Shown in pieces: positions 1,836 through 17,602 of a DNA stretch of 31,442 nucleotides. The stretch comes from Deltaproteobacteria bacterium (GTDB lineage Bacteria > Planctomycetota > Planctomycetia > Planctomycetales > Planctomycetaceae). The notes under the pieces were generated by a model. That model was not told the DNA's origin. It did no database searches and saw nothing but the letters and a program-made list of their open reading frames with translations. The stretch is from assembly GCA_050257335.1 (NCBI GenBank), contig JBLMWR010000089.1:1-31442 (forward strand), read 5' to 3'. Position numbers and translations under genes: made by a program. Each line of letters starts with the position of its first letter. Position 1 is the first letter of the stretch.

Positions 1836-2849
1836 TCAGTTTTTTTCATGATCGTACTTGTCGCGCAGGGTGAGGTTCACTTCAAGGACGTTAATCAGAC
1901 CGACGCCGACCAGCCCGCCCAGCGGGGCTTCCTTCTTCTCCTGGAGGAGCGTTTCGATTTCCTTGCGCACCTCATCGACGTTACGGTTCGCGTCGGCGGC
2001 CCGCCTGGCGGCGACGCGGTCGAGCTGGTAGAGCGCATTTTTCAGGCTGATGTGCGGATCAAGGCCGGAACCGGAGGCCATCACCATGTCGGCGGGCACG
2101 GGCACGAGTTCGGCGTTCGGGTGCTCCTGCCGCCACATATCGAAGAAGATCCCCTGGATCTCTGTTCCCACTTTGACCGTCTGAATCTTCTTCTCGATCG
2201 TGCCGTCGTCGGCCGCCAATTCCACGGCGCTCGGGAACATCCCCGGATGCTCCTTCGAGAAGCTGTTGAAGAAAATGCCCGCCAGGTCTTCGGGCTTCGG
2301 CTCGGGATTATTGTTCTCCTTTTTCCACTGGGACACTTCGTCGGCGTGGTCGCCTGCCCAGGCCATCACGTATGCGCCGTTCAGGGGATCGGCCTTGGCC
2401 CAGTTTGCGGCGACAGCCGAATGCGCCGCGGCCCATTGGGCCACGATCCCCGGATGGCCTTGGAACTGGTCCTTCTGGAACCAGGCTTCGATGTCCGGTC
2501 CCACGGGCTGCCCCTTCCTGGCACCGGCGTACTTCACAATCGGGCCGAGCTGGCGGGCCACCCGCGCGCGAAGCAGATAGTTATTGGCGCCCCAGTTCGA
2601 GGCGCCCGAGCCGGCGGCGTTGTACGAAACAGCCGACGGACGTGGCTGAAAATACCCTTCGCCGCTGAAGGGCTGGGCGATCAGCCGCGAGCCGATCGGA
2701 TTGCCGTCTTTGTCATACAGCAGGCTCCCTTGCGCCTTGTCGTGGAACACTGTCTGTCCAATGAGCAGCAGGATGCCCGGGTAGATGAGGCAGCACAAGA
2801 CCACGGTCAGGACCAGAAGCAGCAGGTTGGCACGCAGGTGCGGAAGCAT
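1836..2849 (-). CDS. kdpC: K+-transporting ATPase subunit C, long form (337 aa)
   Basis: N-terminal TM helix, GSRLIAQPF..GYFQPRPSA, GASNWG, PADMVMASGSGLDPHIS and INVLEVNL motifs. ATG 2849 has an AAGGA SD; the ORF-track start at 3062 runs through a repeat element and is unlikely. Confidence 0.95.
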   Translation of the reverse strand: MLPHLRANLLLLVLTVVLCCLIYPGILLLIGQTVFHDKAQGSLLYDKDGNPIGSRLIAQPFSGEGYFQPRPSAVSYNAAGSGASNWGANNYLLRARVARQLGPIVKYAGARKGQPVGPDIEAWFQKDQFQGHPGIVAQWAAAHSAVAANWAKADPLNGAYVMAWAGDHADEVSQWKKENNNPEPKPEDLAGIFFNSFSKEHPGMFPSAVELAADDGTIEKKIQTVKVGTEIQGIFFDMWRQEHPNAELVPVPADMVMASGSGLDPHISLKNALYQLDRVAARRAADANRNVDEVRKEIETLLQEKKEAPLGGLVGVGLINVLEVNLTLRDKYDHEKN

Positions 2850-2975
2850 CGTTTTTCCTTCGCGATTCTTCAATTCGGGAATCGATGAAGAGCGACGAGG
2901 GACGCCCGGGCCCCTCGCGCATCCACACCCCCAAATAGTTCGGCGGCAGATTGAGCTGCGAATTCGAAAAGAAGT

Positions 2976-3046
2976 CTCACGCAAAGTCGCAAAGACGCGA
3001 AGGTTGCGAATGGCCGTTTCTTTGCGACTTTGCGCCTCTGCGTGAG
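2976..3046. repeat. Imperfect palindrome built from 8-nt (NCGCAAAG) units, in the kdpB-kdpC spacer
   Basis: Left arm CTCACGCAAAGTCGCAAAGACGCGAAG (2976-3002). Right arm CTTTGCGACTTTGCGCCTCTGCGTGAG (3020-3046), whose reverse complement is CTCACGCAGAGGCGCAAAGTCGCAAAG. Confidence 0.85.
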
Positions 3047-3098
3047 GTTCGTCATTTGTCATTCTCTTTCGGTCGTATGTCCTTCAAGGATTGAAACA

Positions 3099-5282
3099 TC
3101 AAGAGATAACGTGCATGCCGACAAGGACGACGTCGAGAAGCTTGATACCGATGAACGGAACGATCACGCCCCCCAGCCCCCAGATCAAAAGATTCCGCCG
3201 GAGCAGTGCGTCCGCGCCGACCGGGCGATACTCGACCCCCTTGAGCGCGATGGGGATAAGCAGCGGAATGATGATCGCGTTGAAAATCACCGCCGCCAGG
3301 ATGGCCGAGGTCGGCGAATGCAGATTCATCACGTCGAAGCTCTTGAGCCACGGCAGCGTGCCGGCGAACAGCGCCGGGACGATGGCGAAATACTTGGCCA
3401 GGTCGTTGGCGATCGAGAAGGTGGTCAGGGCCCCCCGGGTCATCAGGAGCTGCTTGCCGATTTCGACCACTTCGATCAGCTTCGTCGGATCGCTGTCGAG
3501 ATCGACCATGTTGCCGGCCTCCCTGGCGGCCTGCGTTCCCGAGTTCATGGCCACGCCGACGTCGGCTTGCGCGAGCGCGGGGGCGTCGTTGGTTCCGTCC
3601 CCCATCATAGCCACGAGCTTGCCGGCTGCCTGCTCCCTGCGGATGTAGTCGAGTTTCGCTTCGGGCGTGGCCTGGGCGATGAAGGCATCGACGCCGGCCT
3701 GTTCGGCAATGGCTTTGGCCGTCAGCGGGTTGTCCCCCGTGACCATGACGGTCCTCAACCCCATGCGCCGCAGCCGCTCGAACCGGTCGCGCATGCCGGG
3801 CTTCAATATGTCTTCCAGCACGACGAGCCCGGCGAGTTTGCTCCCTTCGCAGACGAGGAGCGGGGTGGCGCCGCGCGAGGCGACTTCGTCCACCTGCTGC
3901 TGAACGCCCGAGCCGAGGTGGCCATTACTCTGCTGCACGTATCTGATCACTGAATCCGGAGCCCCCTTGCGGATCTTCCTCCCATCGGCGAGGTCCAGGC
4001 CGCTCATGCGGGTCTGGGCCGTGAATTCGACGAATTTCGATCCCTGGGGAATGACGGCTTCGAGCGGCAACGTGGCGGCCGACAGGCGGCTTCCCCCGGA
4101 TTCGGCCGGCATCTTCTGAAACAGCTCGACAATGCTCTTTCCCTCGGGGGTCTGGTCGGCGACCGAGGCCAGGGCCGCCAGTCGCCCCAGATCGGTGGCC
4201 GTGTAGCCGTCGAGCGGAACAAATTGCGTGGCCCGCCGATTGCCGACCGTGATCGTCCCGGTCTTGTCCAGGAGCAGCGTATCGACGTCACCGGCGACTT
4301 CAACCGCCTTGCCGCTCTTGGAAAGGATGTTGGCCCTGAGCGCCCGGTCCATCCCTGCGATTCCAATCGCCGCGAGCAGCGCGCCGATCGTCGTCGGAAT
4401 AAGGCACACGAGCAGCCCGACGAGCGTCGGGATGTCGGTTCCCAGGCCCTTGATCGCTTCGGACACGCCGAGATACGACTGCATGTACACCTCGGCGTAG
4501 CAGGCCATGGGCCACAGGGCGGCGGTGACGATGAGGAAGATCAGCGTAAAGGCCGAGAGAACCAGCGACAGCGCGATCTCGTTGGGCGTGCGCTGGCGGA
4601 TGGCCCCCTCGACCAGGGCGATCATGCGGTCGAGGAAGGACTTCCCCGCGCTGGCCGTGATCTCGACGACGATGCGGTCGGAGAGGACGCGCGTTCCGCC
4701 GGTGACACCCGAGCGGTCACCCCCCGCTTCACGGATGACGGGAGCCGACTCGCCGGTGATCGCCGATTCGTCAACTGACGCCACGCCCTCGACGATCTCG
4801 CCGTCGCCGGGGATCACCTGCCCGGCCTCGACCACAACGTGGTCTCCGGCTTGAAGTGCGGTAGACACAGTTTCTTCGATCTGGCCCTTGTCCCGGAGGC
4901 GCCGCGCGGGGGTTTCGCGGCGGGTCTTGCGGAGCGTATCGGCCTGGGCCTTGCCGCGAGCTTCCGCGAGCGCCGTCGCGAAATTCGCGAACAGCACGGT
5001 GGCGAAGAGCCAGACGTCGAGCTGGATGAGATAAGGCAACTGGGTGCCGGGCGCGAGGAACGTAAAGATGATGCTCAAGAACGTCCCAATCTCGACGACG
5101 AACATTACCGGGTTCTTCCATTGGATGTCCGGACGCAGCATCACGAGCGACTGTCTGAGCGCCGCTTTGAGCAGATGCGGCGCGAACAGCCCGTAGCGGC
5201 GGCTGGCGCGGCGGCTGAGTTTCAATTCCTCGGGTGAACCGGGTTGCACCGGAGGAGACTGGACAAGGGTGGCTTCTGACAT
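3099..5282 (-). CDS. kdpB: K+-transporting P-type ATPase subunit B (727 aa)
   Basis: [17 protein letters not shown], phosphorylation motif DKTGTIT, KGAPD, TGDN and [18 protein letters not shown]. Confidence 0.99.
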
Positions 5283-5397: not shown

Positions 5398-7287
5398 TTA
5401 CCCCCCGAACGGCAGCGGGCCGAGATGTTCGGCGACGGGGCCCAGCACGGCGGCCGGCAGGAACAGCAGAGCGCCGATGAGCAGGATCGTTCCCAGCAGC
5501 ACGAATCCAAATGTGATCGTGTCCGTGCGCAATGTTCCGACCGTTTGAGGCGTCGGCCTCTTGGCCGCGAGGCTTCCTGCGAGGGCGATCGGGGCAATGA
5601 TGGGAATAAACCGGCCGAACAACATCGCCAGTCCGCAGGCGATGTCCCAGTGGAAGCCAAAAGGAGCCAGCGGCGGAGTGTCGTTGAAGCCGTACGAGTC
5701 TCCCAGCCCCTCGAAGCCCGAACCGTTATTGGCTGAGGCGGAGGAGAACTCATAGAGCACTTCCGAAAAGCCGTGCGCCGCCGGGCTGTTCATGGCTTTC
5801 ATTCCCCAATCGGTCGCCACAAACAATCCCGTTGGGATGAGGATCAAGAGCGGGTGCGCCAGCATGGCCAGCGAGGCGAGCTTCATTTCGCGGGCCTCCA
5901 CCTTCTTCCCCAGGTATTCGGGCGTGCGACCGACCATGAGGCCCGCCAGGAAGACGCCGATCACCAGGTAAACGAGCAGATTAATCAGTCCGACGCCCAC
6001 ACCCCCCCAGATGCAGTTCAGCCACATTCCGGTCAGTGGCGTCACACCCGCCAGCGGATTCAGGCTGTCGTGCATGCAGTTGACTGAGCCGTTTGAGGTA
6101 TTCGTTGTGAGCGCCGCCCATGTGGCGCCGGCCGACGTGCCGAACCGCAGTTCCTTGCCCTCGAGATTCCCCATTTCCTGATCGACGGGCAGATCCGGCA
6201 ACACGGTCGATTGCGGTTTATCCAGACCGCTTTTGGCCGGATCACGGTCTGTCAGATCGGCCGACCGGCCCGAATGGGCCACGACCCAGACCGGTTTCGC
6301 AGCGCCGCCCGCCTGGGGCACGTCCTGCGGATAGACGAGATCGGCCCTGGCCATAAGAGCCGGATTCGGCTGCGCTGTATCCCAATACAGGACCCATCCG
6401 ATCGTCGTCAGCGACAGCACCAGCATGACGCCGAAGATGACGGCGGCATGGCGAAAGTTGTTCAGCATCTTTCCGAACATGACCAGCGTCGAGACGGGAA
6501 TCAGAATGATTCCCAGGCAGGTCAGGAAATTCGTGTAGCTGTTGGGGTTCTCGAAGGGATGCGCGCTGTTGATGGCAAAGTAACCGCCGCCGTTCGTCCC
6601 GAACTGCTTGACGGCGACGATCGCCGCGACCGGTCCGAGACAGATCTCCTGCGGCTTGGCAACTCCCGCGTCGTCGTTGCCCATGGCGCCAGCTTCGACG
6701 GTGGCCGCCTTCACGCTCCCCTCCAGCGTCATCGGCATGCCCCCCGCAACGAGCAGGGTTGCGACAACCAGGCAAAGCGGCACAAAGAAATAGGCGACGC
6801 CGCGCCACAGATCCACGTAGAAATTCCCCATGTGCCTGTCGCCCCGCAGGCCGCGGATAATCGCCAGCAGCGCGGCCAGACCGATGATCGGCGACAGGAT
6901 CTGCTTCCAGCAGATGAAGAACAACTGGCTGAAATACGAAAGATGGACTTCGCCGGAATAGTGCTGCTGGTTGGTGTTCGTCATGAACGACACGGTGGTG
7001 TGGAAGATCGTGCTCGGGGAAAGCATGCCTTTGTTGTCGGGGTTGAGCGGCAGCCAGGGCTGCAGGCTCAGAACGGCGAACCCGACGACGAACGTCACGA
7101 TATTGAACAGCATGAACGCCACACAGTACTGCTTCCAGTCCTGTGGGCCGGTGTCCAGTTTTTCCTCAATCCAGCGAAGCCAGGTGGGCAGACGGAACCC
7201 GCCGTCAAAGACCCGCGCCATATACAGGCCCAGCGGGATCGCGAGAACGAACGCCGTCGCGAGGATGAGAATCGGCAGAGTCCACAT
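5398..7287 (-). CDS. kdpA: K+-transporting ATPase subunit A (629 aa)
   Basis: Four selectivity-filter segments TNTNQQHYSGE, GTNGGG, TSNGSVN and NNGSGFEGL; also GNLEGKELRFG and GRTPEYLGKK. ATG 7287 is preferred over the SD-less TTG at 7407. Confidence 0.97.
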   Translation of the reverse strand: MWTLPILILATAFVLAIPLGLYMARVFDGGFRLPTWLRWIEEKLDTGPQDWKQYCVAFMLFNIVTFVVGFAVLSLQPWLPLNPDNKGMLSPSTIFHTTVSFMTNTNQQHYSGEVHLSYFSQLFFICWKQILSPIIGLAALLAIIRGLRGDRHMGNFYVDLWRGVAYFFVPLCLVVATLLVAGGMPMTLEGSVKAATVEAGAMGNDDAGVAKPQEICLGPVAAIVAVKQFGTNGGGYFAINSAHPFENPNSYTNFLTCLGIILIPVSTLVMFGKMLNNFRHAAVIFGVMLVLSLTTIGWVLYWDTAQPNPALMARADLVYPQDVPQAGGAAKPVWVVAHSGRSADLTDRDPAKSGLDKPQSTVLPDLPVDQEMGNLEGKELRFGTSAGATWAALTTNTSNGSVNCMHDSLNPLAGVTPLTGMWLNCIWGGVGVGLINLLVYLVIGVFLAGLMVGRTPEYLGKKVEAREMKLASLAMLAHPLLILIPTGLFVATDWGMKAMNSPAAHGFSEVLYEFSSASANNGSGFEGLGDSYGFNDTPPLAPFGFHWDIACGLAMLFGRFIPIIAPIALAGSLAAKRPTPQTVGTLRTDTITFGFVLLGTILLIGALLFLPAAVLGPVAEHLGPLPFGG

Positions 7288-7323
7288 GGCAAAGGCAGCC
7301 TTTCGCAGGATGGGCTTCCCGGC

Positions 7324-7347
7324 CCGTCCGTCCGTCCGTCCGTCCGT
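7324..7347. repeat. (CCGT)6 tetranucleotide microsatellite
   Basis: Six perfect CCGT units between kdpF and kdpA. Confidence 0.95.
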
Positions 7348-7444
7348 TACAAATGTTGATCGCTCTGCAAGCGGCACGCATGGTTCATCCACGCCTTCGG
7401 CCGCCAATTACGCACGGGCTTGGAAGCCCATGCTGCAGGCACGA

Positions 7445-7525
7445 CTAGAACCACTCTGGTCGCAAGAGCGCGGCCATGAGGTAGACGAAGAGCAACACAG
7501 TGACAATGGCGGTGAGCACCAGCAT
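7445..7525 (-). CDS. kdpF: KdpF subunit (26 aa)
   Basis: MLVLTAIVTVLLFVYLMAALLRPEWF*: single TM helix with the YL..ALLRPE.F KdpF signature, a GAGGGG SD, and directly upstream of kdpA. Too short for the ORF track. Confidence 0.93.
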   Translation of the reverse strand: MLVLTAIVTVLLFVYLMAALLRPEWF

Positions 7526-7537
7526 GAATGCCCCTCT

Positions 7538-7633
7538 TTAAACTTTTTCACAACCAATGATGAAAGCGCACATGAGCCCGAGGACAACCAGCCCCAGGAG
7601 CAACAGGGCCGGAATCCAGATGGAAAGGTTCAT
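7538..7633 (-). CDS. Small single-TM peptide upstream of kdpF (KdpG/KdpZ-like, 31 aa)
   Basis: MNLSIWIPALLLLGLVVLGLMCAFIIGCEKV*: GGAG SD 7 nt upstream, hydrophobic core, C-terminal GCEKV, stop 12 nt before the kdpF ATG. Confidence 0.8.
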   Translation of the reverse strand: MNLSIWIPALLLLGLVVLGLMCAFIIGCEKV

Positions 7634-7678
7634 AAGTCGCTCCGTTTTCGTTCGTGTAACCCGATTGACCCTTCTAAA

Positions 7679-7694
7679 CGCAACGCCTATGCCA
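7679..7694 (-). promoter_or_regulatory. Sigma-54 (-24/-12) promoter of the kdp operon
   Basis: Minus strand TGGCATAGGCGTTGCG = GG-N10-GC with TGGCA and TTGC flanks, ending 45 nt before the first kdp ORF. A sigma-54 activator is encoded nearby. Confidence 0.8.
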
Positions 7695-7732
7695 ATGCCG
7701 CGACGAAACCGCAAACATTTCACTGACGCGAG

Positions 7733-7762
7733 GTTGTGAATTTTTTCGCGCCGTGTCACAAC
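7733..7762. promoter_or_regulatory. Inverted repeat GTTGTGA-N16-TCACAAC with a T-tract, between the enhancer and the sigma-54 promoter
   Basis: Perfect 7-bp arms at 7733-7739 and 7756-7762, with T6 at 7741-7746. Confidence 0.4.
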
Positions 7763-7770
7763 ATCCAGAA

Positions 7771-7785
7771 CGTGCACTGTGCACG
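7771..7785. promoter_or_regulatory. Candidate upstream activator site 1 (CGTGCA-CTG-TGCACG)
   Basis: Palindrome centred at 7778, about 110 bp upstream of the inferred sigma-54 transcription start. Confidence 0.65.
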
Positions 7786-7801
7786 AACTGTTTCAACTGT
7801 T

Positions 7802-7817
7802 CTTGCAATTTGCATGA
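7802..7817. promoter_or_regulatory. Candidate upstream activator site 2 (CTTGCA-ATT-TGCATGA)
   Basis: Same TGCA-N3-TGCA core, centred at 7809, 31 bp (three helical turns) from site 1. Confidence 0.6.
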
Positions 7818-7977
7818 CGCTCGCCTGAGTGCCTTCGTAAACGGTTTCTCCATTCCCTCGACCGTCTGATCCGGCCCTGCAGTCCGCCGAATTCCGGGCC
7901 GCATGTCCCAGATGACCGTTGAGAACTCCGGCAGCGGCGCCGACGAGAGCACCTGCGCTCAGACGACAGGTCCGAGA

Positions 7978-8021
7978 AACAAAAAAGCCCTCGGCGCGCC
8001 GCTCGCGGCGCACCAAGGGCT
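7978..8021 (-). terminator. Rho-independent terminator of element B
   Basis: About 16-bp GC-rich stem (8021-7986) followed by a U-tract on the minus strand. Confidence 0.85.
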
Positions 8022-8061
8022 CTCACAGCCGAATTAAACTGCCACTCATGGGAAGCCAATA
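7978..8061 (-). ncRNA. Leader/sRNA element B ending in an intrinsic terminator
   Basis: Follows a TTGACA-N17-TAGTTT promoter. Ends in the hairpin AGCCCTTGGTGCGCCG-CGAG-CGGCGCGCCGAGGGCT followed by TTTTTGTTT. GGCTT (8057-8053) can pair with GAGCC at the foot of the terminator. Confidence 0.5.
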
Positions 8062-8067
8062 ACCGTA

Positions 8068-8096
8068 AAACTAACCGGCCGGCATCTGGCTGTCAA
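8068..8096 (-). promoter_or_regulatory. Sigma-70-type promoter TTGACA-N17-TAGTTT
   Basis: Perfect -35 (8096-8091), 17-nt spacer, TAnnnT -10 (8073-8068). Confidence 0.7.
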
Positions 8097-8155
8097 CAAG
8101 AATTTGATTAATGAAACGGGCGCGCGAGGCAGTTTGGACCGCCCGCTCGAGACGA

Positions 8156-8183
8156 GTAGGACGACCTTCTCAGGTCGTCCTAC
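8156..8183. repeat. Perfect palindrome with GTAG/CTAC ends (REP-like)
   Basis: GTAGGACGACCT-TCTC-AGGTCGTCCTAC: 12-bp perfect arms starting with the GTAG tetranucleotide typical of REP sequences. Confidence 0.7.
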
Positions 8184-8209
8184 AGTGTCCAAGCCATGCC
8201 GTGCGCCCG

Positions 8210-8290
8210 AAATAAAAGAACCCTTCGAACGCCGGGGCCGTTTCGAAGGGTTCTCGCAGCCACATTGACCTGCCGCTGCTCAGGAGGCGG
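8210..8290 (-). ncRNA. Leader element A ending in an intrinsic terminator
   Basis: Hairpin AGAACCCTTCGAA...TTCGAAGGGTTCT (13-bp perfect, 8254-8217) followed by TTTATTT. The region 8274-8246 is 23/29 identical to element B (8043-8015). No clear promoter was found. Confidence 0.45.
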
Positions 8291-8486
8291 CCACAGGATG
8301 GGTTCAGTTCTGCAATCGGTTTTGTGAAGCGAGTGTTTCTCTCCTTCGCCGGTTGGCGTCCAAAACCGCGATCAGCCGGTTTCGCGGGTGCCAATCGTTC
8401 GGGCTGGCAATCTGGCGGGCGGATTCGACAGGAATCCGGCCCGGCTCGGCGGACTTCCCAAAGATTGCATCCCGCACGATCGCACC

Positions 8487-8497
8487 TGCAGATTGCA
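8487..8497. promoter_or_regulatory. TGCA-GAT-TGCA site upstream of the GGDEF promoter
   Basis: Third copy of the TGCA-N3-TGCA core, 37 nt upstream of the -35 at 8535. Confidence 0.45.
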
Positions 8498-8534
8498 AAG
8501 CGAGGATGACGAAAAAAGGCCTGGCGGATACCGT

Positions 8535-8564
8535 TTGACAGTGCTGCGTACCACGGCCCATAAT
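8535..8564 (+). promoter_or_regulatory. Sigma-70-type promoter TTGACA-N18-CATAAT
   Basis: Perfect -35 (8535-8540) and 5/6 -10 (8559-8564), just before leader C. Confidence 0.7.
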
Positions 8565-8570
8565 TCAAAT

Positions 8571-8658
8571 TGTGTGACGGCTCCTCGCGACCGGGCAGGC
8601 GCGGTCGGGCAGTGAAAGCCGCTCTGTGCGACGACCGCAGGGCGAGGCTTTTTTTATT
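8571..8658 (+). ncRNA. Riboswitch/attenuator-like leader C of the GGDEF gene
   Basis: CGGCT (8578-8582) can pair with AGCCG (8617-8621), competing with the terminator AAAGCC...GGCTTTTTTT (8615-8655). Internal hairpin CGACCG-GGCAGGCG-CGGTCG. The terminator ends about 25 nt before the ATG at 8682. Confidence 0.55.
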
Positions 8659-8681
8659 CCCCTGATTTCGACGGGGCTTCG

Positions 8682-9608
8682 ATGCCGCCAGACCTCCGCG
8701 AGCACGACGAGCGGGAACGATCTCTCCGCCTGATGGCGGCTATCGTCGACTCCTCCGGCGACGCCATCTTTAGCCAGAATTGGGACGGCGCGATCACGAG
8801 CTGGAACCACGGAGCCGAGCAGATGTTTGGCTATTCCTCCGCGCAGGCGCTCGGACAATCCGAAACGATCATTGTTCCGCCCGAGTATGAGAATGAGCTG
8901 TCGCAGATTCGCGGAAAAATCCGACGCGGCGAGCGGATCGAAAATTTCGAGGCGGTGCGGTGGACGAAGTTTGGGCGGCGCATTTGCGTGTCGATCAGCG
9001 TTTCGCCGGTCAGGAACGAGTCCGGCGTCCTCATCGGCGTGGCGAACATCGTCCGCGACATCACGGCACGCAAGGAGGCCGAGGCCCGGATTCTGCACCT
9101 GGCGTATTTCGACGCTCTCACCGAACTGCCGAACCGGACGCTGTTCCAGGACCGCCTGCAGCAGGCCGTGGCGCTCGCAAAACGGCAGAACCGCTTGCTG
9201 GCCGTGCATTTTCTGGATCTGGACCATTTCAAGAACGTCAACGATTCGCTGGGGCACTTGCAGGGGGATGCACTCCTGCGGGCGGTCGCCGAGCGCCTGC
9301 AGCGCTCGATCCGTGCCAGCGACACCGTGGCGCGGTTTTCCGGCGATGAGTTCGCCGTCCTGCAGACCGATCTCGCGCACGCGGAGGGTGCCGCCACGCT
9401 GGCGGGCAGGCTCCTGGCCGTGATTTCCGAGCCCTACCTGATCAACCAGCAGACAGTCCGCACGACGGCCAGCATCGGTATCGCGATCTACCCTCTTGAC
9501 GATGCGTCCGGAAGCCAATTGGTGCAGAACGCGGACAGGGCCATGTACCAGGCCAAGAAGAGCGGGCGGAATGATTTCTGGTTCTATGGCGAAGAAACGG
9601 AGACATAG
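8682..9608 (+). CDS. PAS-GGDEF diguanylate cyclase-type protein (308 aa)
   Basis: PAS (IVDSSGDAIFS...ITSWNHGAEQMFGYS...VSISVSPVRN...IVRDIT), then DALTELPNR, DLDHFKNVNDSLGH..GD, I-site RASD five residues before SGDEF, and ADRAMYQAK. No EAL domain. Confidence 0.93.
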   Translation: MPPDLREHDERERSLRLMAAIVDSSGDAIFSQNWDGAITSWNHGAEQMFGYSSAQALGQSETIIVPPEYENELSQIRGKIRRGERIENFEAVRWTKFGRRICVSISVSPVRNESGVLIGVANIVRDITARKEAEARILHLAYFDALTELPNRTLFQDRLQQAVALAKRQNRLLAVHFLDLDHFKNVNDSLGHLQGDALLRAVAERLQRSIRASDTVARFSGDEFAVLQTDLAHAEGAATLAGRLLAVISEPYLINQQTVRTTASIGIAIYPLDDASGSQLVQNADRAMYQAKKSGRNDFWFYGEETET

Positions 9609-9641
9609 CGCCTCCGCCTTCGAAAGGCACCCCGCGCCCGT

Positions 9642-9658
9642 TCGTGCAATTTGCACGA
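9642..9658. promoter_or_regulatory. Perfect palindrome TCGTGCA-ATT-TGCACGA upstream of the regulator operon
   Basis: Fourth and most symmetric copy of the TGCA-N3-TGCA motif, 129 nt upstream of the regulator ATG. Confidence 0.6.
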
Positions 9659-9727
9659 TCGCCGCAACCTCTGATCGGCCGGTCTCTAATTGTGAATGGT
9701 GCTGAAATCGTTCATGTCGGGGGAGTT

Positions 9728-9790
9728 ATGAAGGAATCGCGGCTCCGCAACGCCGCCGGCACGAAGAATGCGGTTTGGGGTCGTTCATGA
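9728..9790 (+). CDS. Possible 20-aa upstream ORF coupled to the regulator
   Basis: GGGGGAG SD, then [20 protein letters not shown]. Its TGA overlaps the regulator ATG (ATGA at 9787-9790). Confidence 0.3.
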   Translation: MKESRLRNAAGTKNAVWGRS

Positions 9791-11121
9791 ATATTCTCTT
9801 GATCGATGACGACCAGAGCCTGCGCAAGTCGATCCGCATGGCGCTGGAAACGATGAACCATCGCGTGACCGAGGCGAGCGATGGCGCGCAGGCGCAAGAA
9901 CTCCTGGGACATAGCTTGTTCGACGTCGCCTTTCTCGACGTTCGTCTCGGTCGCGAAAAGGGACTGGACCTGCTGCTGACGCTATTGCGGCTGGCCCCGG
10001 GGCTGGCGGTCGTGGTCATTACCGCGTATGCGACAATCGAGACGGCCGTCGAAGCGATGCGGCGCGGAGCGTTTGATTTTCTGCCGAAGCCGTTCACGCC
10101 GGACGAGCTTCGCCGCGTGCTGGAACGCGTCGTTCGCATCCGCCGGCTCGAGTCGCACGTGGAGGAACTGGAGGATCAGGTCCGCTCGATCGTCCCCGAG
10201 GCCGACCTGCAGACGGAAGAGCCGGCAATGCAGCACGCGGTGGAAATGGCCTTTCGGGCGGCCCCGACGGAAGCCACGATTCTGCTGCGCGGCGAAAGCG
10301 GGACCGGCAAGGGGGTGCTGGCGCGGGCCATTCATGCCCGCAGTCAGCGGGCCGCGGCGCCGTTCATTACGGTCAATTGCCCGAGCCTGTCGGCGGAGCT
10401 GCTGGAGAGCGAGCTCTTCGGGCACGTCCGCGGGGCCTTTACGGGGGCGGTTCAGGATACCGAGGGGAAAGTCGCGGCGGCCGAGGGAGGGACGCTGTTT
10501 CTCGACGAGATCGGCGATCTGCCGCTGGGCCTGCAGCCGAAACTGCTGCGGCTTCTGCAGGAGAAGCGGTATGAGCGGGTCGGAGAGACGCGGACGCGGG
10601 TGTGCGACGTGCGAATTCTGGCGGCCACGAATCGCGACCTGCGCACCGCGGTCGCCAAAGGGACGTTTCGCGAGGATTTGCTGTACCGCCTCAACGTGAT
10701 TGAAATCGAGCTGCCTCCCTTGCGACAGCGGCAGAAAGACATCCTGTTTCTGGCCGAACATCTGCTGCAGTTTTTCGCGAAGCAGGCGGGCAAACCGGGT
10801 TGCACGTTCACGCCGGAAGCCCGCGAGGCGCTGCTGAAACACCCTTGGCCGGGAAACGTGCGGGAACTGCGGAACGCCATTGAGCGGGGCGTCATCCTGG
10901 CTCCTGGCCTGGAGGTGGGGCTGTCGGATCTGCCGGCACAGATCGGCGCGTCGCTGCCTGCCGGCGTTATCGAGCTGGGCGGCGGCGTGACGCTCGAACA
11001 GCTCGAAGCCGAATACATCCGCCGCGTCCTGGCAAAGACGGCGACCATGGACGAGGCGGCCACGGTTCTGGGGATCGACCCGAGCACGCTGTACCGCAAG
11101 CGCAAACGGCACGGACTTTGA
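9787..11121 (+). CDS. Sigma-54-dependent response regulator (NtrC family, AlgB-like; 444 aa)
   Basis: Receiver ([22 protein letters not shown]), AAA+ ([51 protein letters not shown]) and Fis-type HTH ending [18 protein letters not shown], like Pseudomonas AlgB. Confidence 0.96.
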
Positions 11122-11126
11122 AACGG

Positions 11127-11178
11127 ACGAATGACGAAATCCGAATGTCCAAACAGATCCGAAGCCCGAATGACAAAG
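11127..11178. repeat. 7-nt-period degenerate repeat (NCGAATG / NCGAAAT)
   Basis: ACGAATG ACGAAAT CCGAATG TCCAAAC agat CCGAAGC CCGAATG; reverse-complement family of 5334-5387. Confidence 0.75.
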
Positions 11179-11229
11179 GAAACCTGTCTATTTCACCGCA
11201 ACCTTCCGCCACGACTAGAACAAAAGGAA

Positions 11230-11310
11230 ACCGCGGATGACGCTGATGAAGGCGGATGTGCGCGTTGACCCTGATCTTATTTATCCGTGCGTATCCGCGT
11301 CATCCGCGGT
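11230..11310. repeat. Imperfect palindrome built from 9-nt (NNCGCGGAT-like) units
   Basis: Left arm ACCGCGGATGACGCTGATGAAGGCGGAT (11230-11257) versus the reverse complement of the right arm ACCGCGGATGACGCGGATACGCACGGAT (11283-11310): 22/28 identical. Confidence 0.85.
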
Positions 11311-11358
11311 GCCTCTCTTTTAATTTCTCCAAACTGACATTCCTGAATCAGTCCACCG

Positions 11359-13266
11359 ATGACCCTGACGCTGCGGCAACGCATCTTCCTGACACTGGTT
11401 CCCCTGCTGCTGCTGCTGGCGGTGGTGGGGAGCGCGGGGGTGGCGCTGCTGCTGCGGCTGGGGAACAGCATCAACGAGATCTTGCGCGAGAACTACGCCA
11501 GCGTCATCGCGATGGAGCGGCTCAACGAGTCACTGGAACGGATTGACTCGTCGTTCCAGATTGCAATGAGCGGAAGAGATGACAGGGAGCTGCTGGAGAA
11601 GGCCCGCACGCAGTATGAGCAAAACTGGAAGGAGTACCTCGAGGAGTTTGAGAAGGAGCAGAACAACATTACGCTCCCCGGGGAGGGAGACCTCGTCGGT
11701 CAGCTCGAGTCGCTGACGCAGGAATACCGGTCGCTCGGGGACGCCTTTTTCGCCAGCGCCGGGAAGGAAGCCGAGCAGCGGAAAGCCTATTACGGGCATC
11801 CCTCCGGCCTGTTGGAGACCTTCGGGCGGATTAAAGAGGTTACTGGAAAGATCCTGCGGATCAATCAGCAAAACATGGAGGACGCCGGCCGGCGCGCACG
11901 GCAGCTCGCGCTCGATTCGCTGACGTGGTTCGGCGCCGGCCTGGCGTTGGCCATCCTCCTGGCTGGAATTTCGGCCTGGCACACGGTCCGCACGATCCTG
12001 CAGCCAATCGGGGCAATGACTCTGGCGGCCCAGGAAATCAGCGCGGGAAATCCCGATCAGGTCGTGCCGTTCGTCGGACGCGACGAGCTGGGGCAGCTTG
12101 CGCAGGCCTTCAACACCATGGCGCATCACCTGCGCGAGTACCGGCAGTCGCAATCGGCCCAGCTCTTGCGCGCCCAGCAGACGATCCAGGCGACGATCGA
12201 TTCTTTTCCCGACCCGGTGCTGGTGATCGACCTGGAAGGGTCCGTGGAGATGGCCAACCCCGCCGCGCGGCGGCTGCTCGGGGTGGTTCCGAAGCAAAAG
12301 GGGCAGGCGGCGTCGGGGATCTGGCACCCGCTGGATTCGCTTCGCCAACCCCTGACCGAAGCCCTGCAGGGACAGCGCGACTTCCTGCCGGAAGGCTTCG
12401 ACCGGGCGATTCTGGTCGGTTCCAACGGGCGAGAACGGGCGATGCTCCCGCGGATCCTCACGATTCGCGATCCGCACGGATATACGCTGGGGGCCGCCGT
12501 GGTGCTGCAGGACGTCACTCGCCTGCGGCTGCTCGACCAGGTCAAAAGCAATCTCGTGGCGACCGCCAGTCACGAACTGAAAACGCCGCTGACCAGCATC
12601 CGCCTGGCGGTGCACCTGCTCCTTGAAGAAACGGTGGGGCCCCTCACCCCCAAGCAGATGGAGCTCCTGCTGGATGCCCGGGAAAACAGCGAGCGGCTCT
12701 TGGCTATGGTCAATAACCTGCTTGATCTGGCGCGCCTCGAAAAGGGATCGCGGCAGCTCGATGTGCGCGCGGAATCCGCCGAGTCGCTGCTGCAGTCGGC
12801 GGCCGACGCCGTTCGCCCGCGTGCGGACGACAAGGGAATCGAGATCGTGGTCGAGGTTCTGCCGGGGCTGCCGCCGGTTGCGGTTGACGCCTCACGGCTG
12901 GGCCACGCCCTGCGAAACTTGCTGGATAATGCCCTCACGTACACTGACCGGGGAGGCCGGATTACGCTGTCGGCCAGTGCCGATGCTGAGGCGGTCATCC
13001 TGTCTGTCGCCGACACGGGGATCGGCATTCCGGCCGAGCACGTTACGCATGTCTTCGAAAAGTTCTTCCGAGTGCCGGGACAAAGCCGCGGAACAGGAAC
13101 CGGACTGGGACTGGCCATCGTGAACGAAATCGTCGCCGCCCATGGCGGAACAATCACCTGCGAGAGCCGGCCGGGCGCGGGCACGGTATTCCGGATGCGG
13201 CTGCCGCTGTCGGAGGGAAGCCTCGACGCGGGATACGCGTTCGGTCACTTGGAGACACAACGATGA
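11359..13266 (+). CDS. Membrane sensor histidine kinase (KinB-like: 2 TM, helical periplasmic domain, HAMP, PAS, HisKA, HATPase; 635 aa)
   Basis: TM1 IFLTLVPLLLLLAVVGSAGVALLL, TM2 TWFGAGLALAILLAGISAW, HAMP (RDELGQLAQAFNTM), PAS (IDSFPDPVLVID...ANPAARRLLG), H-box ASHELKTPLTSI, and NLLDNA, DTGIGI, GTGLGLAI. Confidence 0.95.
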   Translation: MTLTLRQRIFLTLVPLLLLLAVVGSAGVALLLRLGNSINEILRENYASVIAMERLNESLERIDSSFQIAMSGRDDRELLEKARTQYEQNWKEYLEEFEKEQNNITLPGEGDLVGQLESLTQEYRSLGDAFFASAGKEAEQRKAYYGHPSGLLETFGRIKEVTGKILRINQQNMEDAGRRARQLALDSLTWFGAGLALAILLAGISAWHTVRTILQPIGAMTLAAQEISAGNPDQVVPFVGRDELGQLAQAFNTMAHHLREYRQSQSAQLLRAQQTIQATIDSFPDPVLVIDLEGSVEMANPAARRLLGVVPKQKGQAASGIWHPLDSLRQPLTEALQGQRDFLPEGFDRAILVGSNGRERAMLPRILTIRDPHGYTLGAAVVLQDVTRLRLLDQVKSNLVATASHELKTPLTSIRLAVHLLLEETVGPLTPKQMELLLDARENSERLLAMVNNLLDLARLEKGSRQLDVRAESAESLLQSAADAVRPRADDKGIEIVVEVLPGLPPVAVDASRLGHALRNLLDNALTYTDRGGRITLSASADAEAVILSVADTGIGIPAEHVTHVFEKFFRVPGQSRGTGTGLGLAIVNEIVAAHGGTITCESRPGAGTVFRMRLPLSEGSLDAGYAFGHLETQR

Positions 13267-13343
13267 TTCATGCCCGCCATTCATATCCGAGGGCGACGCT
13301 GCCAGCGTCGCCCACGAATGTCCTCGTGCGGAGTTGACCAGCC

Positions 13344-14474
13344 GTGGCCACTGACGACACCCGGCCGGCGCCCGAGCATTTCCTGACGCTGATCCGCCAG
13401 CAGCAGCGGGGGCGGCTCAAGATTTATCTGGGTTTTGCCGCCGGCGTCGGCAAGACGTATGAGATGCTGCAGGAAGGACATCGTCTGAAACGGCGCGGCG
13501 TGGACGTCGTCATCGGCCTCGTGGAGACGCACGGGCGGGCTGAAACGATCGCGCAGATCGGCGACCTCGAGCAGGTCCCGCGCCGCAAAATCGAATTTCA
13601 CGGCGTGACGCTCGAGGAGATGGACCTCGACGCCATCCTCGCGCGCCGCCCCAGCGTCGTTCTGGTCGACGAGCTGGCCCACACCAACGCCCCCGGGAGC
13701 CGGAACGCCAAACGCTATCAGGATGTCGACGAGCTGCTGCAGGCGGGGATCAACGTCATCAGCACGCTCAACATCCAGCACCTCGAGAGTCTGTACGACA
13801 TGGTCGAACGGGCCATCGGCGTGAAGGTGAAGGAACGCGTCCCCGACTACGTTCTGGGGATGGCCGACCAGTTGGTGAACGTGGACGTGTCGGCCGAGGA
13901 CTTGCGCGAGCGGCTGCAGGCGGGCAAGGTCTATCCGGCGGAGCGGATCGACACGGCCCTGCAGAATTTCTTCACGCAGGTCAACCTCACCCGCCTGCGG
14001 GAGCTGGCCCTGGAAGAAATCGCCCACCGGCTCGACCGGCGGCGGACGAAACACGATGCTGACGAGAACCAGGGGGGCTCCGAACGCGTCATGGTCTGCC
14101 TCAGCTCGCGGAGCCCTCATGCCGAGCAGTTGCTCCGCAAGGGAGCGCGACTCGCGGATCGACTCGGCGCCCCGTGGTACGCCGTCTACATCCAGACTCC
14201 TGACGAGGAGCTTGACCGCATCGACGCGGCGACCCAGCGGCGGATCACCAATACGCTGACCCTGACCCAGCAGATGGGGGGAACCCCCATGACCTTCAAG
14301 GGAAGCGACGTGGTGAGCACGGTGGCGGCGTTCGCCAACGAGTACGGGATCACGCATATCGTGATGGGCCGCACGCAGCGCCCCTGGTACCGGCGCCTGT
14401 TCAGCCAGTCGGTCCTCGACGGCCTGCTGCAAGCAGTCCCGCACGTGGACGTGATCGTCGTCGGCGCCCGCTGA
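13344..14474 (+). CDS. kdpD: Stand-alone KdpD N-terminal sensor + Usp domain protein (truncated KdpD, 376 aa)
   Basis: GRLKIYLGFAAGVGKTYEML, GLVETHGRAET, EEMDLDAILARRP..VLVDELAHTN, KRYQDV, STLNIQHLESL, then a Usp domain. No TM helices or kinase core. GTG start with GGAG SD. Confidence 0.93.
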   Translation: MATDDTRPAPEHFLTLIRQQQRGRLKIYLGFAAGVGKTYEMLQEGHRLKRRGVDVVIGLVETHGRAETIAQIGDLEQVPRRKIEFHGVTLEEMDLDAILARRPSVVLVDELAHTNAPGSRNAKRYQDVDELLQAGINVISTLNIQHLESLYDMVERAIGVKVKERVPDYVLGMADQLVNVDVSAEDLRERLQAGKVYPAERIDTALQNFFTQVNLTRLRELALEEIAHRLDRRRTKHDADENQGGSERVMVCLSSRSPHAEQLLRKGARLADRLGAPWYAVYIQTPDEELDRIDAATQRRITNTLTLTQQMGGTPMTFKGSDVVSTVAAFANEYGITHIVMGRTQRPWYRRLFSQSVLDGLLQAVPHVDVIVVGAR

Positions 14475-14773: not shown

Positions 14774-17602
14774 TCACGCCGCGCGGCCGGCGTGGTCTTC
14801 ATCCTGCGGCGGATCGTCATGAAATTCGGCGATGCGCAGGAACTCAAGCGTGTTTGGGGCTTCGTCAAACTCGTTCGATGACTCAGCGGACAGCAAATCG
14901 ACGGAGCGCGCCCCGCGGTGCCGGGTCATCCAGGTCAAAATCGCCGGTACGGTGATGACCGACACCAGGAGACACGTCCCGACGCCGATTGTCAGCACCA
15001 GTCCCAGGCTGTAGAGGCCGCGGTGGGCGGCGATCATCATGCTGCCGAAGCCGACCATGGTCGTGGTGGCGTTGACGAAAATGGCGTTGATGACACTGGC
15101 GGACGGAGTATAGGGTTCGGACTGCGACTGCGTCCGGAAATCGTGAATCACATGGACCCCGCCATCGACTCCCAGGCCGATGACCAGCGGGAGCACGATC
15201 AGATTGGCCGGGTTCAGGTCGACGTCGAAGAGACCCAGAACGCCGAACATCAGGGCCGTCCCGGCCAGCGGGGGCAACAGGGCCAAAAGACAATCGCGCA
15301 GGTTGCGAAAGTCGATCAGCAGGAAGATGCAGACGGCGATCAGGGCATAGATCCCGGCCGTCTCGTAGCTGTGCTTGATCGCCTTGGAGGCCTCGTAAGT
15401 CTGCAGCGGCGTGCCGGTCGCCTCGGGATCGACCGAGCGCACCTCGGCGATGAACTTTTCGAGGGGCTGGATGTCCCAGATCTGCGACTTGGGATAAACC
15501 TGCAGCAGCCATTTCCCCTGCGGGCTGATGAAGCGCCCCACGAGGGCCGGAGTAAGGTCGGCGGGGCTGACCGGCTCGGACTGGGCGATCGACGCCAGTC
15601 CGTGGAGCCGCCCCAGCAAGTCCGCCGCCAGCCGCGCCTGGTACTCGCGCAAGAGCTGCATCTGTGCCGGCTGGCTCAGCTCCGCAAGGTGATCGAGAAA
15701 GCGGTTGATCGTTTCGCGGGCCCCTCTCGCCGCGGACGAGGGATTCGACGCGAGCGCGGTCTCGATCCGCTCCAGCTCGACGCCGATCATGCTGGGATCG
15801 ACTTCGCGGGACTCCGGCGTGCGGGCCGGGAGCGAGGCCAGCTCGGCCCCGACGGCCTGCACCAGAAGCTGCGTTTCTTCCTCGGGATAATGCGGCAGGA
15901 TCGCCGCGAGTTCTTCGACGTGGTGCACCGTCGGCAGCGCTTCGAATTTCTTTTTCAGCTCGAGGACCTGCTTCGAGCTGTCGGCCAGCGACACGGCGAA
16001 GAGGAGCGAATTGTCGGCCTGATCGAAAATCCGCTTCTGGACTTCCACCGATTCCAGTCCGCTGGCCTGCAGGTGCAGCAGGTTGTAGTCGTATTCGACG
16101 CGCACCCCATAGGCAGCGATGCCGGCGATCGCCAGGCTCGACAGCCCCGTCACCCACACGGGATACTTCGAAGTCAGCGCCCGAAGCCAGCGGCTTTCCA
16201 GCGGCTTGGCGAGCGTATTTCCCGGGCGGCGGCGGTCGGCCACCACCAGGACTGCCGGCAGCACCACGAAGGCGGCCACGGTGCAGAGCAGAATTCCCCC
16301 GCCGGCGATGATCCCCAGCTCGGCGACGCCGGCGAAGTCGGTGAGCACTGCGCAATAAAAGGCGACCGACGACGAAATGGCGGCCGTCAGGATTCCGGGG
16401 CCCACGCTGGTCCCCGTTGCGATGACGGCCGACTGGGCGTCGAGCCCCTCATGCCGGCACTCCAGATACCGGAGCAGATACACCGTGGAATAGTCGATCC
16501 CGATGCCGATCAGCATGGCGGCAAACGACACCGACAGGATATTGAGGTGCCCGACAGCGAGGGTCGTGAAGCCGAATGACCACGCCATGCCGACCAGGAG
16601 GACGAGGTTGCCGAGGATGGGGTAGCGCAGGCCGCGAAAGCCGAGAACCATCAGGGCGGCGACGCCGAGAAACGAGAGGATCGAAGCGTAGAACATGGCC
16701 GTCTGAGACGAGCGCATTTCGTCGCTTTCGAGGACGGGAATGCCGGTCAGCGCCAGGCGCGCCCCGGCGTGCTGCCGGACGACCTCAGCCATCAATTCGC
16801 GCAGGCGGTCGATGGAAGGGGATGAGCCGTTGAAGTCGTTGGCGGTGGTCGTGGGCTGGGTCTTGAGGAACCCCATGGTTCCTTTTTCGTTCATCAGATA
16901 GCGATCGCGAAAAATTGTTTCGAGCTGGGACAGCTCCCCTGGCATCTGCGCCTGCCAGGGAGAATTGAAGCGCCGCTGGTCGCGCGCGTAGGTTTCGAGG
17001 CTCGACGCCAAGAGCGCGGTCTGCTGGACGAGAGGCTCGGTCATCAGGGCGGCGACCTCGGCCGGCTGAGAACCGGCCCGTTCGAGCGTCATCCGCAGCT
17101 CGCGTACGAACGACCGCAGGGTCAACAGGTCGAATTGCTGCAGAAGGGGGCTGAGCTGATCGAGCTGAGACAGGATCATCTGCAGTTGTTCGGGGGACGA
17201 ATACTGCAGCGACTTTTCGCGGAGATGGCTCAGATCGACCTTGTAGAGGACGTTCTTGAACAGGTCCTTTTCGCCCTCGAGCCGCCGGCCCAGGTCGTCG
17301 AGCGTCCGCTTGATCGTCTCGGCATCATCGGCTTCGATGACGACGACCATGTCCTCGGTGACGTCTCCGAATTCCCGCGTATAGTTCATCCACCGCTGGT
17401 GGTACTCGGTGCTGGGGTCGATGAGGTCGGCACGGCTGGTTTTGAAGGCCAGATGATCGCGGGTGTAAAGGGTGCAGAGTGCGGCCAGTCCCAGGCAGAC
17501 GAACAGGGTAAACGCCGGAAAACGGGCCACCGCCACGGTCGTCCAGTGCAGAATCGCTTCGACTGGCGAGCGGCGCGAGCGTTCCGGTGGATGTCCAGAC
17601 AT
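14774..17602 (-). CDS. MMPL/RND-superfamily lipid transporter, HpnN-like (942 aa)
   Basis: Two TM clusters with LNILSVSFAAMLIGIGIDYS and LNPANLIVLPLVIGLGVDGGVH, large periplasmic domains, RLALTGIPVL and ATGTPLQTYE. ATG 17602 chosen over the track start at 17758. Confidence 0.85.
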   Translation of the reverse strand: MSGHPPERSRRSPVEAILHWTTVAVARFPAFTLFVCLGLAALCTLYTRDHLAFKTSRADLIDPSTEYHQRWMNYTREFGDVTEDMVVVIEADDAETIKRTLDDLGRRLEGEKDLFKNVLYKVDLSHLREKSLQYSSPEQLQMILSQLDQLSPLLQQFDLLTLRSFVRELRMTLERAGSQPAEVAALMTEPLVQQTALLASSLETYARDQRRFNSPWQAQMPGELSQLETIFRDRYLMNEKGTMGFLKTQPTTTANDFNGSSPSIDRLRELMAEVVRQHAGARLALTGIPVLESDEMRSSQTAMFYASILSFLGVAALMVLGFRGLRYPILGNLVLLVGMAWSFGFTTLAVGHLNILSVSFAAMLIGIGIDYSTVYLLRYLECRHEGLDAQSAVIATGTSVGPGILTAAISSSVAFYCAVLTDFAGVAELGIIAGGGILLCTVAAFVVLPAVLVVADRRRPGNTLAKPLESRWLRALTSKYPVWVTGLSSLAIAGIAAYGVRVEYDYNLLHLQASGLESVEVQKRIFDQADNSLLFAVSLADSSKQVLELKKKFEALPTVHHVEELAAILPHYPEEETQLLVQAVGAELASLPARTPESREVDPSMIGVELERIETALASNPSSAARGARETINRFLDHLAELSQPAQMQLLREYQARLAADLLGRLHGLASIAQSEPVSPADLTPALVGRFISPQGKWLLQVYPKSQIWDIQPLEKFIAEVRSVDPEATGTPLQTYEASKAIKHSYETAGIYALIAVCIFLLIDFRNLRDCLLALLPPLAGTALMFGVLGLFDVDLNPANLIVLPLVIGLGVDGGVHVIHDFRTQSQSEPYTPSASVINAIFVNATTTMVGFGSMMIAAHRGLYSLGLVLTIGVGTCLLVSVITVPAILTWMTRHRGARSVDLLSAESSNEFDEAPNTLEFLRIAEFHDDPPQDEDHAGRAA

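Follow-up and report, generated by a model that had tools for sequence, protein, structure and literature searches.

In the textbook account, the Kdp potassium pump is controlled by KdpD and KdpE. The stretch of DNA analysed here (31 kb of contig JBLMWR010000089.1, 31,442 nt, hereafter the window) lies within a metagenome-assembled genome that is 78% complete and whose closest relatives are labelled Gemmataceae or Planctomycetota. Its kdp locus is a real, well-preserved sigma-54-dependent Kdp cassette together with a stand-alone KdpD module, a putative serine kinase, found here in a new phylum. The wiring is not a new principle, having been mapped in D. vulgaris in 2011. What is new here is an operator-promoter signature with helical phasing that is shared across phyla, an exact co-occurrence of the sigma-54 activator and the short KdpD, a likely autoregulatory promoter, and a conserved gene for a 31-residue peptide at the head of the pump operon. 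The reading we favour, at a probability of roughly 0.6, is that Kdp is controlled in two tiers: by a sigma-54 transcription arm and by a post-translational brake that the short KdpD would place on the pump.

The sigma-54 transcription arm

An earlier note on this DNA, made from the sequence alone, had described kdpFABC as diverging from a regulatory locus that encodes a sigma-54 activator, a kinase with two transmembrane (TM) segments plus HAMP and PAS domains, and a soluble KdpD fragment, and had assigned the pump operon a promoter of the GG-N10-GC type. The genes are indeed arranged in this way, with kdp on the minus strand and the regulators on the plus strand. The elements of the transcription arm are as follows (domain calls throughout are from Pfam and NCBIfam profile searches; kdpD' denotes the gene for the short KdpD):

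9787–11121, plus strand: NtrC-type sigma-54 enhancer-binding response regulator (REC, Sigma54_activat at 4.7e-67, AAA_lid_14, HTH_8)
11359–13266, plus strand: membrane histidine kinase (TM1, periplasmic part resembling a four-helix bundle (4HB), TM2, HAMP, PAS, HisKA, HATPase_c)
7680–7694, minus strand: sigma-54 -24/-12 promoter of the kdp operon, a motif match to TGGCAT-N5-TTGC, TGGCATAGGCGTTGC
7773–7783, no strand: proximal enhancer palindrome TGCACAGTGCA, 89 nt upstream of the kdp -24 element
7804–7814, no strand: distal enhancer palindrome TGCAAATTGCA, 120 nt upstream of the kdp -24 element
8487–8497, no strand: fourth TGCA-N3-TGCA palindrome, TGCAATCTGCA on the minus strand
9645–9655, no strand: palindrome TGCAATTTGCA, upstream of the activator gene
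9757–9772, plus strand: candidate sigma-54 promoter of the activator-kinase-kdpD' operon, CGGCAC-N5-ATGC

The kdp promoter is the sole TGGCAY-N5-TTGC match in the window, where 0.13 would be expected; a strict search of the window for TGGCAY-N5-TTGCW finds no match because the base after TTGC is a G. Equivalent sigma-54 sites occupy the same relative position in related loci. The window holds four TGCA-N3-TGCA palindromes, all within 7773–9655, and the motif is enriched: there are 7 strand-matches versus 1.27 expected, a count reached by 0 of 100 shuffles. For the palindrome at 8487–8497 no partner promoter was found.

Palindrome and promoter form a composite that recurs in other genomes. The comparison drew on 80 related loci encoding a short KdpD, taken from contigs of one genome per species. 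A composite was defined as a palindrome, a gap of 80–125 nt and a GG-N10-GC element that matches the consensus at 4 or more of 7 further positions, and was sought on both strands of these loci and the window (81 sequences, 2.65 Mb) alongside six control spacings; a strict regular expression had missed most promoters in the related loci and was replaced by this graded score with background controls. The search returned 47 distinct sites, as against 4–12 at the control spacings, and 40 of them stand, in the right orientation, immediately before kdpA or before one of the two regulatory genes (kinase or activator). Such a pair precedes one of these three genes in 37 related loci from several phyla; composite-bearing loci come from Gemmataceae and Isosphaeraceae (Planctomycetota), Desulfobacterota, Fibrobacterota, Aminicenantes, Binataceae (Binatota), Acidiferrales and Myxococcota. 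The spacings cluster near 89, 101, 111 and 122 nt, in steps of roughly one turn of the helix. Judged by its motifs, this architecture is the expected signature of an enhancer-binding protein at a sigma-54 promoter, and it is because the composite is conserved, a comparative kind of evidence, that the adjacent activator is read as the protein that would bind there and regulate kdp.

The activator gene is in a cluster with kdpFABC, and its translation contains the intact GAFTGA motif reported in the earlier note. Its kdp-linked orthologs in other phyla are 46–54% identical to it, versus at most 41% for the paralogs in its own genome, which encodes some 13 such activators and has rpoN. The start is most likely the ATG at 9787, rather than 9775. 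The kinase has its two hydrophobic segments (residues ~9–32 and ~187–207) around a helical stretch of ~155 residues; its periplasmic part is weakly like 4HB_MCP_1 (E = 2e-4, below the cut-off), and its N-terminal sensor part is conserved across phyla at 24–62% identity. The label "KinB/AlgB-like", which the pair had been given, holds for domain architecture (as in Pseudomonas, a 2-TM HAMP-PAS kinase with an NtrC-type regulator) but goes no further: the regulon is different, and the best NCBIfam matches are to other families, all below cut-off (PnpS, WalK and PhoR for the kinase; AtoC, NtrC and PEP-CTERM regulators for the activator).

On these comparisons the transcription arm, from the kinase through the enhancer-binding protein to the kdp promoter, appears well supported. 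In the scheme that we infer, the membrane kinase, with its periplasmic four-helix-bundle sensor, HAMP and cytoplasmic PAS, would phosphorylate the adjacent NtrC-type activator; the activator would then bind the TGCA-N3-TGCA palindromes ~90 and 120 nt upstream of the sigma-54 promoter and drive the gene for the 31-residue peptide and, after it, kdpF-A-B-C.

The motifs also suggest that the activator-kinase-kdpD' operon is positively autoregulated, because a similar palindrome and a weaker -24/-12 site stand before the activator gene. The palindrome at 9645–9655 lies 112 nt upstream of the candidate promoter, and the same arrangement precedes the activator gene in five related loci (L012, L021, L022, L023 and L046). 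Where the genes are co-linear (activator, kinase, kdpABC, kdpD'), the composite promoter lies between the activator and kinase genes, so that the kinase, and in Isosphaeraceae-type loci the REC protein as well, would be co-induced with the pump. The Isosphaeraceae-type loci (L027–L040, L069) carry one or two single-domain REC genes between the kinase gene and kdpA.

The short KdpD and the pump

The proposed second tier concerns two proteins:

13344–14474, plus strand: short KdpD, 376 aa (KdpD N-terminal domain plus Usp; Pfam KdpD 3.2e-95, Usp 2e-10)
3099–5282, minus strand: kdpB, P-type ATPase subunit (Pfam E1-E2 ATPase/HAD)

The short KdpD ends right after Usp and is without TM, GAF and DHp-CA kinase core, as the earlier note had seen. 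It matches 2R8R (4.5e-71) and is 42.6% identical to residues 1–376 of E. coli KdpD over 371 aligned positions. The N-terminal domain of KdpD has been described as an atypical serine kinase that phosphorylates KdpB at Ser162 and inactivates the pump, residues 1–230 alone being sufficient for the phosphorylation (Silberberg et al., 2024; PMC11018627). Phosphorylation is lost wholly or almost wholly in a Walker A mutant (G36A/K37A/T38C) and likewise in D109A, in E110A and in W39A/R190A, and DgKdpD of Deinococcus geothermalis, a natural protein of KdpD and Usp only, phosphorylates KdpB and is stimulated by cyclic di-AMP (c-di-AMP) (PMC11018627). KdpD versions without histidine-kinase domains predominate in species without KdpE, and for those species no kdp transcriptional regulator was named (Silberberg et al., 2024; PMC11018627); in the window, such a regulator is evident.

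The residues in question are conserved. At E. coli numbering the short KdpD has G30-x5-GKT (30–38), D109, E110 and R190, and among 46 short KdpDs from kdp-linked loci G30, G36, K37, T38, D109 and R190 are invariant and E110 nearly so. KdpB, which is 58.8% identical to E. coli KdpB and keeps DKTGT, also keeps the target serine with its preceding Glu (ITGESAPV, residues 175–182; E178-S179), Ser179 being the equivalent of E. coli Ser162. The window and its genome are like the DgKdpD system in having KdpD-N plus Usp only, G-x5-GKT, a Walker B DE, Arg190, TGES in KdpB and a diadenylate cyclase (here a protein with a DAC domain encoded in the same genome). By homology, a serine-kinase role appears to be the best-supported function of the short KdpD: the soluble protein would work by itself as an atypical serine kinase. 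When K+ is plentiful it would phosphorylate Ser179 in the TGES motif of KdpB and so silence existing membrane pumps, and c-di-AMP, acting on the Usp domain, may stimulate it. In one locus, L065 (Fibrobacteres; 9980–11635, plus strand), the short KdpD is part of a 551-aa fusion protein that also has a PTS EIIA_2 domain.

The rest of the pump operon comprises:

7538–7633, minus strand: gene for a 31-aa single-TM peptide, first of the kdp operon (recognised by homologs at the same position)
7445–7525, minus strand: kdpF (TIGR02115, 33.2 bits against a cut-off of 26.85)
5398–7287, minus strand: kdpA (Pfam KdpA, 8.7e-199)
1836–3062, minus strand: kdpC (Pfam KdpC, 6.1e-51); the true start may be downstream of 3062

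In the direction of transcription the order is thus the 31-codon membrane-peptide gene, kdpF, kdpA, kdpB and kdpC. The start of kdpA is most likely at about 7287, since the KdpA profile begins at residue 47 of the long open reading frame (ORF). The peptide gene, located between the sigma-54 promoter and kdpF, has homologs at the same position in at least 17 Gemmataceae-type loci (consensus M-D-L-x-I-W-L-P ... F-A-F-V-x-A-C-D-K-V, with C-[DE]-[KR]-V at its end); none were found in other gene arrangements among the related loci, and the peptide has no match in Pfam or NCBIfam. One possible identity for it is an additional small subunit of Kdp, another a leader peptide. KdpC is much longer than the 190 aa of E. 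coli KdpC because of an internal insert; the alignment runs over the full length for KdpC from Gemmataceae-type loci and from some in Desulfobacterota (L047, L049, L050, L052; 51–55% identity), and covers only the two ends for the remaining loci.

Distribution and surroundings of the cassette

A survey of gene neighbourhoods bears out the linkage of short kdpD, kinase, activator and pump. It took in the 52 short-KdpD loci whose flanks reach 8 kb or more upstream and 3.5 kb or more downstream; several loci that seem to lack a gene are long-read assemblies with frameshifts or clusters cut by the end of the flank. The kdp genes accompany the short KdpD in 47 of the 52, the kinase in 42 and the activator in 38, and all three are together in 34. 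The closer link to the pump than to the kinase or activator fits a pump-directed role for the short KdpD, which also stands with kdpABC alone (L049, L050, L053, L054; seen in Smithella, Hydrogenedentota and one Isosphaeraceae locus). Four main gene orders were seen: kdpCBA facing activator-kinase-kdpD', the type of the window (16 loci); activator-kinase-REC-kdpABC-kdpD' in Isosphaeraceae; activator-kinase-kdpABC-kdpD'; and kdpABC-kdpD'-kinase-activator in Myxococcota, Binatota and also D. vulgaris. Cultured bacteria with the cassette include Singulisphaera acidiphila DSM 18658 (L030), Tautonia sp. (L027), Corallococcus coralloides (L082) and D. vulgaris.

Some loci depart from these orders. 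Genome G105 (L088, L089), L006 and L009 have kdpCBA facing kinase-kdpD' with no adjacent activator, the activator ortholog of G105 (76% identity) being on another contig. L016, from Schlesneria, has activator-kinase-kdpD' without kdpABC within 5 kb upstream; at ~5031 on its minus strand a good composite promoter (score 6, spacing 112) faces an ORF containing DUF4278. In L065 a second palindrome-sigma-54 composite (~16060–16172, plus strand) precedes not kdp but an SPFH/Band 7 gene, which hints at a wider regulon.

Within the window's own family, sampled through 120 relatives, 36 have a KdpD domain: about 29 are full-length (~900 aa) and 6 are short, while the 299-aa frame of G006 is a frameshifted canonical copy, not the short type. 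No KdpD domain occurs in 84 of 121 family genomes. Activator orthologs (75–78% identity) are found only in the six short-KdpD genomes (G021, G024, G076, G086, G105 and G116), and the best activator match in every other family genome is at most 46% identical. Two of the six, G076 and G116, have both a full-length and a short KdpD. Three full-length cases are canonical kdpABC-kdpD-kdpE operons with a KdpA only 38–40% identical to that of the window; in Desulfobacterota loci of the sigma-54 type, KdpA is 54–56% identical to it. This divergence of KdpA, together with the co-occurrence pattern, indicates that pump and regulators move together as one of two alternative cassettes, and suggests that whole kdp cassettes are gained and lost within the family, two types with strongly divergent pumps coexisting.

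The absence of KdpE, named in the earlier note, holds for the assembled genome as a whole, which has no full-length KdpD either. There, the short KdpD is the sole gene with a KdpD domain, and nothing matches the TM/GAF part of E. coli KdpD (residues 400–660). The window has no KdpE, and the best KdpE-like genes of the genome are unlinked and share 35–41% identity with E. coli KdpE, as against 49–58% for the true KdpE genes of relatives, which adjoin kdpD.

The DNA between the two operons contains elements beyond the promoters:

7983–8024, minus strand: intrinsic terminator with a 19-bp stem, upstream of the kdp enhancer
8682–9608, plus strand: PAS-GGDEF diguanylate cyclase gene with motif SGDEF (NCBIfam GGDEF 2.2e-46, PAS)

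The terminator would insulate the kdp promoter from upstream minus-strand transcription. Some 940 nt (7740–8680) between the divergent operons hold no convincing ORF, with hairpins also near 8150–8260, and a scan of 7300–9900 against Rfam at E up to 1 returned chance-level matches only: no ydaO (c-di-AMP) riboswitch or other known leader precedes kdp there. This noncoding DNA and the PAS-GGDEF gene are additions to the earlier note. The PAS-GGDEF gene sits between the kdp and regulator operons and is lineage-specific; it was rejected as a part of the circuit, since tblastn finds no counterpart of it in the 80 related loci. Upstream of it are a near-consensus sigma-70 promoter (8535–8564) and a terminator-like hairpin (8620–8644).

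Known systems and competing explanations

The earlier note knew of no experimental description of such a circuit. One existed: the DVU3334–DVU3336 circuit of D. vulgaris was published in 2011 with DAP-chip binding (PMC3333781). In that report, the sigma-54 regulator DVU3334 of D. vulgaris Hildenborough binds the region upstream of kdpF by DAP-chip, with a peak at DVU3339; the site is given as CGTTACATTTTGTAACG, TTACA-TTT-TGTAA, 149 nt before kdpF (Table S7), and the kinase is called "split" into DVU3336 (K+ sensor plus UspA) and DVU3335 (Rajeev et al., 2011; PMC3333781). The E. coli reporter for DVU3334 was one of those without a meaningful result, so that binding was shown in D. vulgaris and activation was not. 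DVU3334, with its GAFTGA motif, was later listed with potassium uptake in a sigma-54 regulome (Kazakov et al., 2015; PMC4641369). The cluster DVU3339.1–DVU3334 is like the window in combining kdpFABC with a KdpD-N/UspA protein (DVU3336), a PAS kinase (DVU3335) and a GAFTGA regulator (DVU3334), and both are without KdpE. The D. vulgaris site and the window palindromes share the same 5-N3-5 geometry, with one letter different per half-site (TACA versus TGCA). The D. vulgaris genes form one operon (kdpFABC-kdpD'-kinase-regulator), whereas the window has two divergent operons and an inserted PAS-GGDEF gene; the window, unlike D. vulgaris, also has the extra 31-aa peptide gene before kdpF and belongs to Planctomycetota.

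The E. coli KdpD/KdpE system controls the same pump by other means. The window's KdpD is without the 4-TM, GAF and DHp-CA parts, there is no OmpR-type KdpE, and the kdp promoter is of the sigma-54 type with a distant enhancer, whereas that of E. coli is a sigma-70 promoter activated by KdpE. Cyanobacteria (Anabaena, Synechocystis) encode a stand-alone KdpD-N protein at the kdp operon, as in the window, but there its partners are a kinase resembling KdpD-C and a regulator of the OmpR type in place of a sigma-54 system.

The circuit proposed in the earlier note divides into two parts that fared differently: the arm of kinase, activator and sigma-54 kdp promoter is upheld by the phased palindromes, by co-occurrence and by the lack of KdpE and full-length KdpD in the assembled genome, while a short KdpD serving the kinase as its detached sensor is not supported, there being a published KdpB-serine-kinase role whose residues are conserved here. 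Such a three-component circuit would have the short KdpD sense ATP, c-di-AMP or K+ status in the cytoplasm, bind the HAMP-PAS kinase, set its kinase/phosphatase balance and be needed for kdp transcription; it would be compatible with the serine-kinase role, and we consider it unlikely. What speaks for it is mainly position, as arrangements of the Gemmataceae and Myxococcota types have kdpD' immediately behind the kinase gene, and kdpD' stays with the kinase where the activator gene is elsewhere (G105, L006, L009). Heermann and co-workers reportedly found in 2000 that a separately expressed N-terminal part of E. coli KdpD complements a KdpD without its N-terminal part. The D. vulgaris pair was taken for a single split kinase (Rajeev et al., 2011; PMC3333781). 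The kinase of the window, however, is judged not to be the missing half of KdpD, because it has no TM4/GAF match and its core is about as close to KdpD cores (33–38% identity) as to paralog kinases of its own genome (31–37%); with its different membrane and sensor part, it was rejected as a split-off C-terminal half. In most phyla, moreover, kdpD' follows kdpC and not the kinase gene, some kdpABC-kdpD' loci have no kinase or activator, and the published enzymatic role (PMC11018627) accounts for the strict conservation of the Walker A/B residues. A complex prediction for KdpD' and the cytoplasmic part of the kinase (residues 208–635; 46-row alignments, same loci in the same order) gave a median score of 0.19, where the mark is 0.32; such a score neither supports the idea nor counts against it. 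Since kdpD' lies in the kinase operon and remains beside the kinase when the activator has moved (G105), an additional role with the kinase keeps a low but not negligible probability. Its tentative form is a bifunctional short KdpD that would phosphorylate KdpB and also dock on the 4HB-HAMP-PAS kinase, passing nucleotide status (ATP or c-di-AMP) on to a sigma-54 circuit.

Two further explanations seem much less probable still. The short KdpD could act on the regulator or on DNA, for instance by making the activator sit more stably on its enhancer; that the two co-occur exactly in the family sample would suit this, and Heermann and co-workers are said to have reported in 2003 that the N-terminal domain of E. 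coli KdpD stabilises KdpE-DNA binding. The activator, however, is an NtrC-type AAA+ protein unrelated to KdpE outside the receiver domain, and the short KdpD is also found without an activator nearby, which makes such an action highly improbable. It is equally hard to credit that the adjacent two-component system is a mere neighbour while a canonical KdpD/KdpE in the unassembled 22% of the genome, or some other factor, controls kdp. The incomplete assembly leaves room for this, and G076 and G116 do carry both KdpD types, but canonical kdpD-kdpE genes in relatives sit in their own kdpABC operon with its distant KdpA, the kdp sigma-54 promoter shares its palindromes with the region upstream of the activator gene, no sigma-70-type match was found near kdpF, and the composite motif is conserved across phyla.

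The two-tier reading, which remains the preferred one, has points against it as well. The genome is 78% complete, and the likeness to D. vulgaris is one of gene content and operator geometry. Of the sequencing runs found to contain the region, all are labelled as probable DNA or as of undetermined type, and none is an RNA run. The candidate activator promoter is weak (a score of 4/7) and ends 15 nt before the ATG at 9787, leaving almost no leader, so its assignment to sigma-54 is tentative. In contrast to DgKdpD, from which activity here is extrapolated by homology, the short KdpD has Tyr, not Trp, at position 39, and with 395.9 bits it falls below the cut-off of 550 for NF038185 (KdpD_non_kinase, "KdpD-like non-kinase potassium sensor"), an "exception"-type model probably built on a narrower clade. 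Region I of its Usp domain reads SxS-X20-WYAVY, with equivalents of the c-di-AMP-binding S244 and Y271 of S. aureus, and it also fits the E. coli-type RXXXR-X8-WXAVY exactly; because it is a hybrid of both motif types, control by c-di-AMP is uncertain, if possible. Finally, in this lineage kdpD' is in an operon with the kinase and not with the pump, which would also fit a role with the kinase.

For species whose KdpD is without histidine-kinase domains, mostly species without KdpE, these results supply in many phyla a kdp regulator that belongs to a portable cassette, in which the pump travels together with a sigma-54 two-component system and with a KdpD module of its own, a putative serine kinase. 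The conserved TGCA-N3-TGCA operator with its phased spacing is a concrete and testable signature of the regulon. If the short KdpD were in addition bifunctional, a true three-component system would combine outside sensing by the periplasmic four-helix bundle with the K+ status inside the cell, and the K+ input so far lacking in the many bacteria whose only KdpD is a short one would be accounted for.

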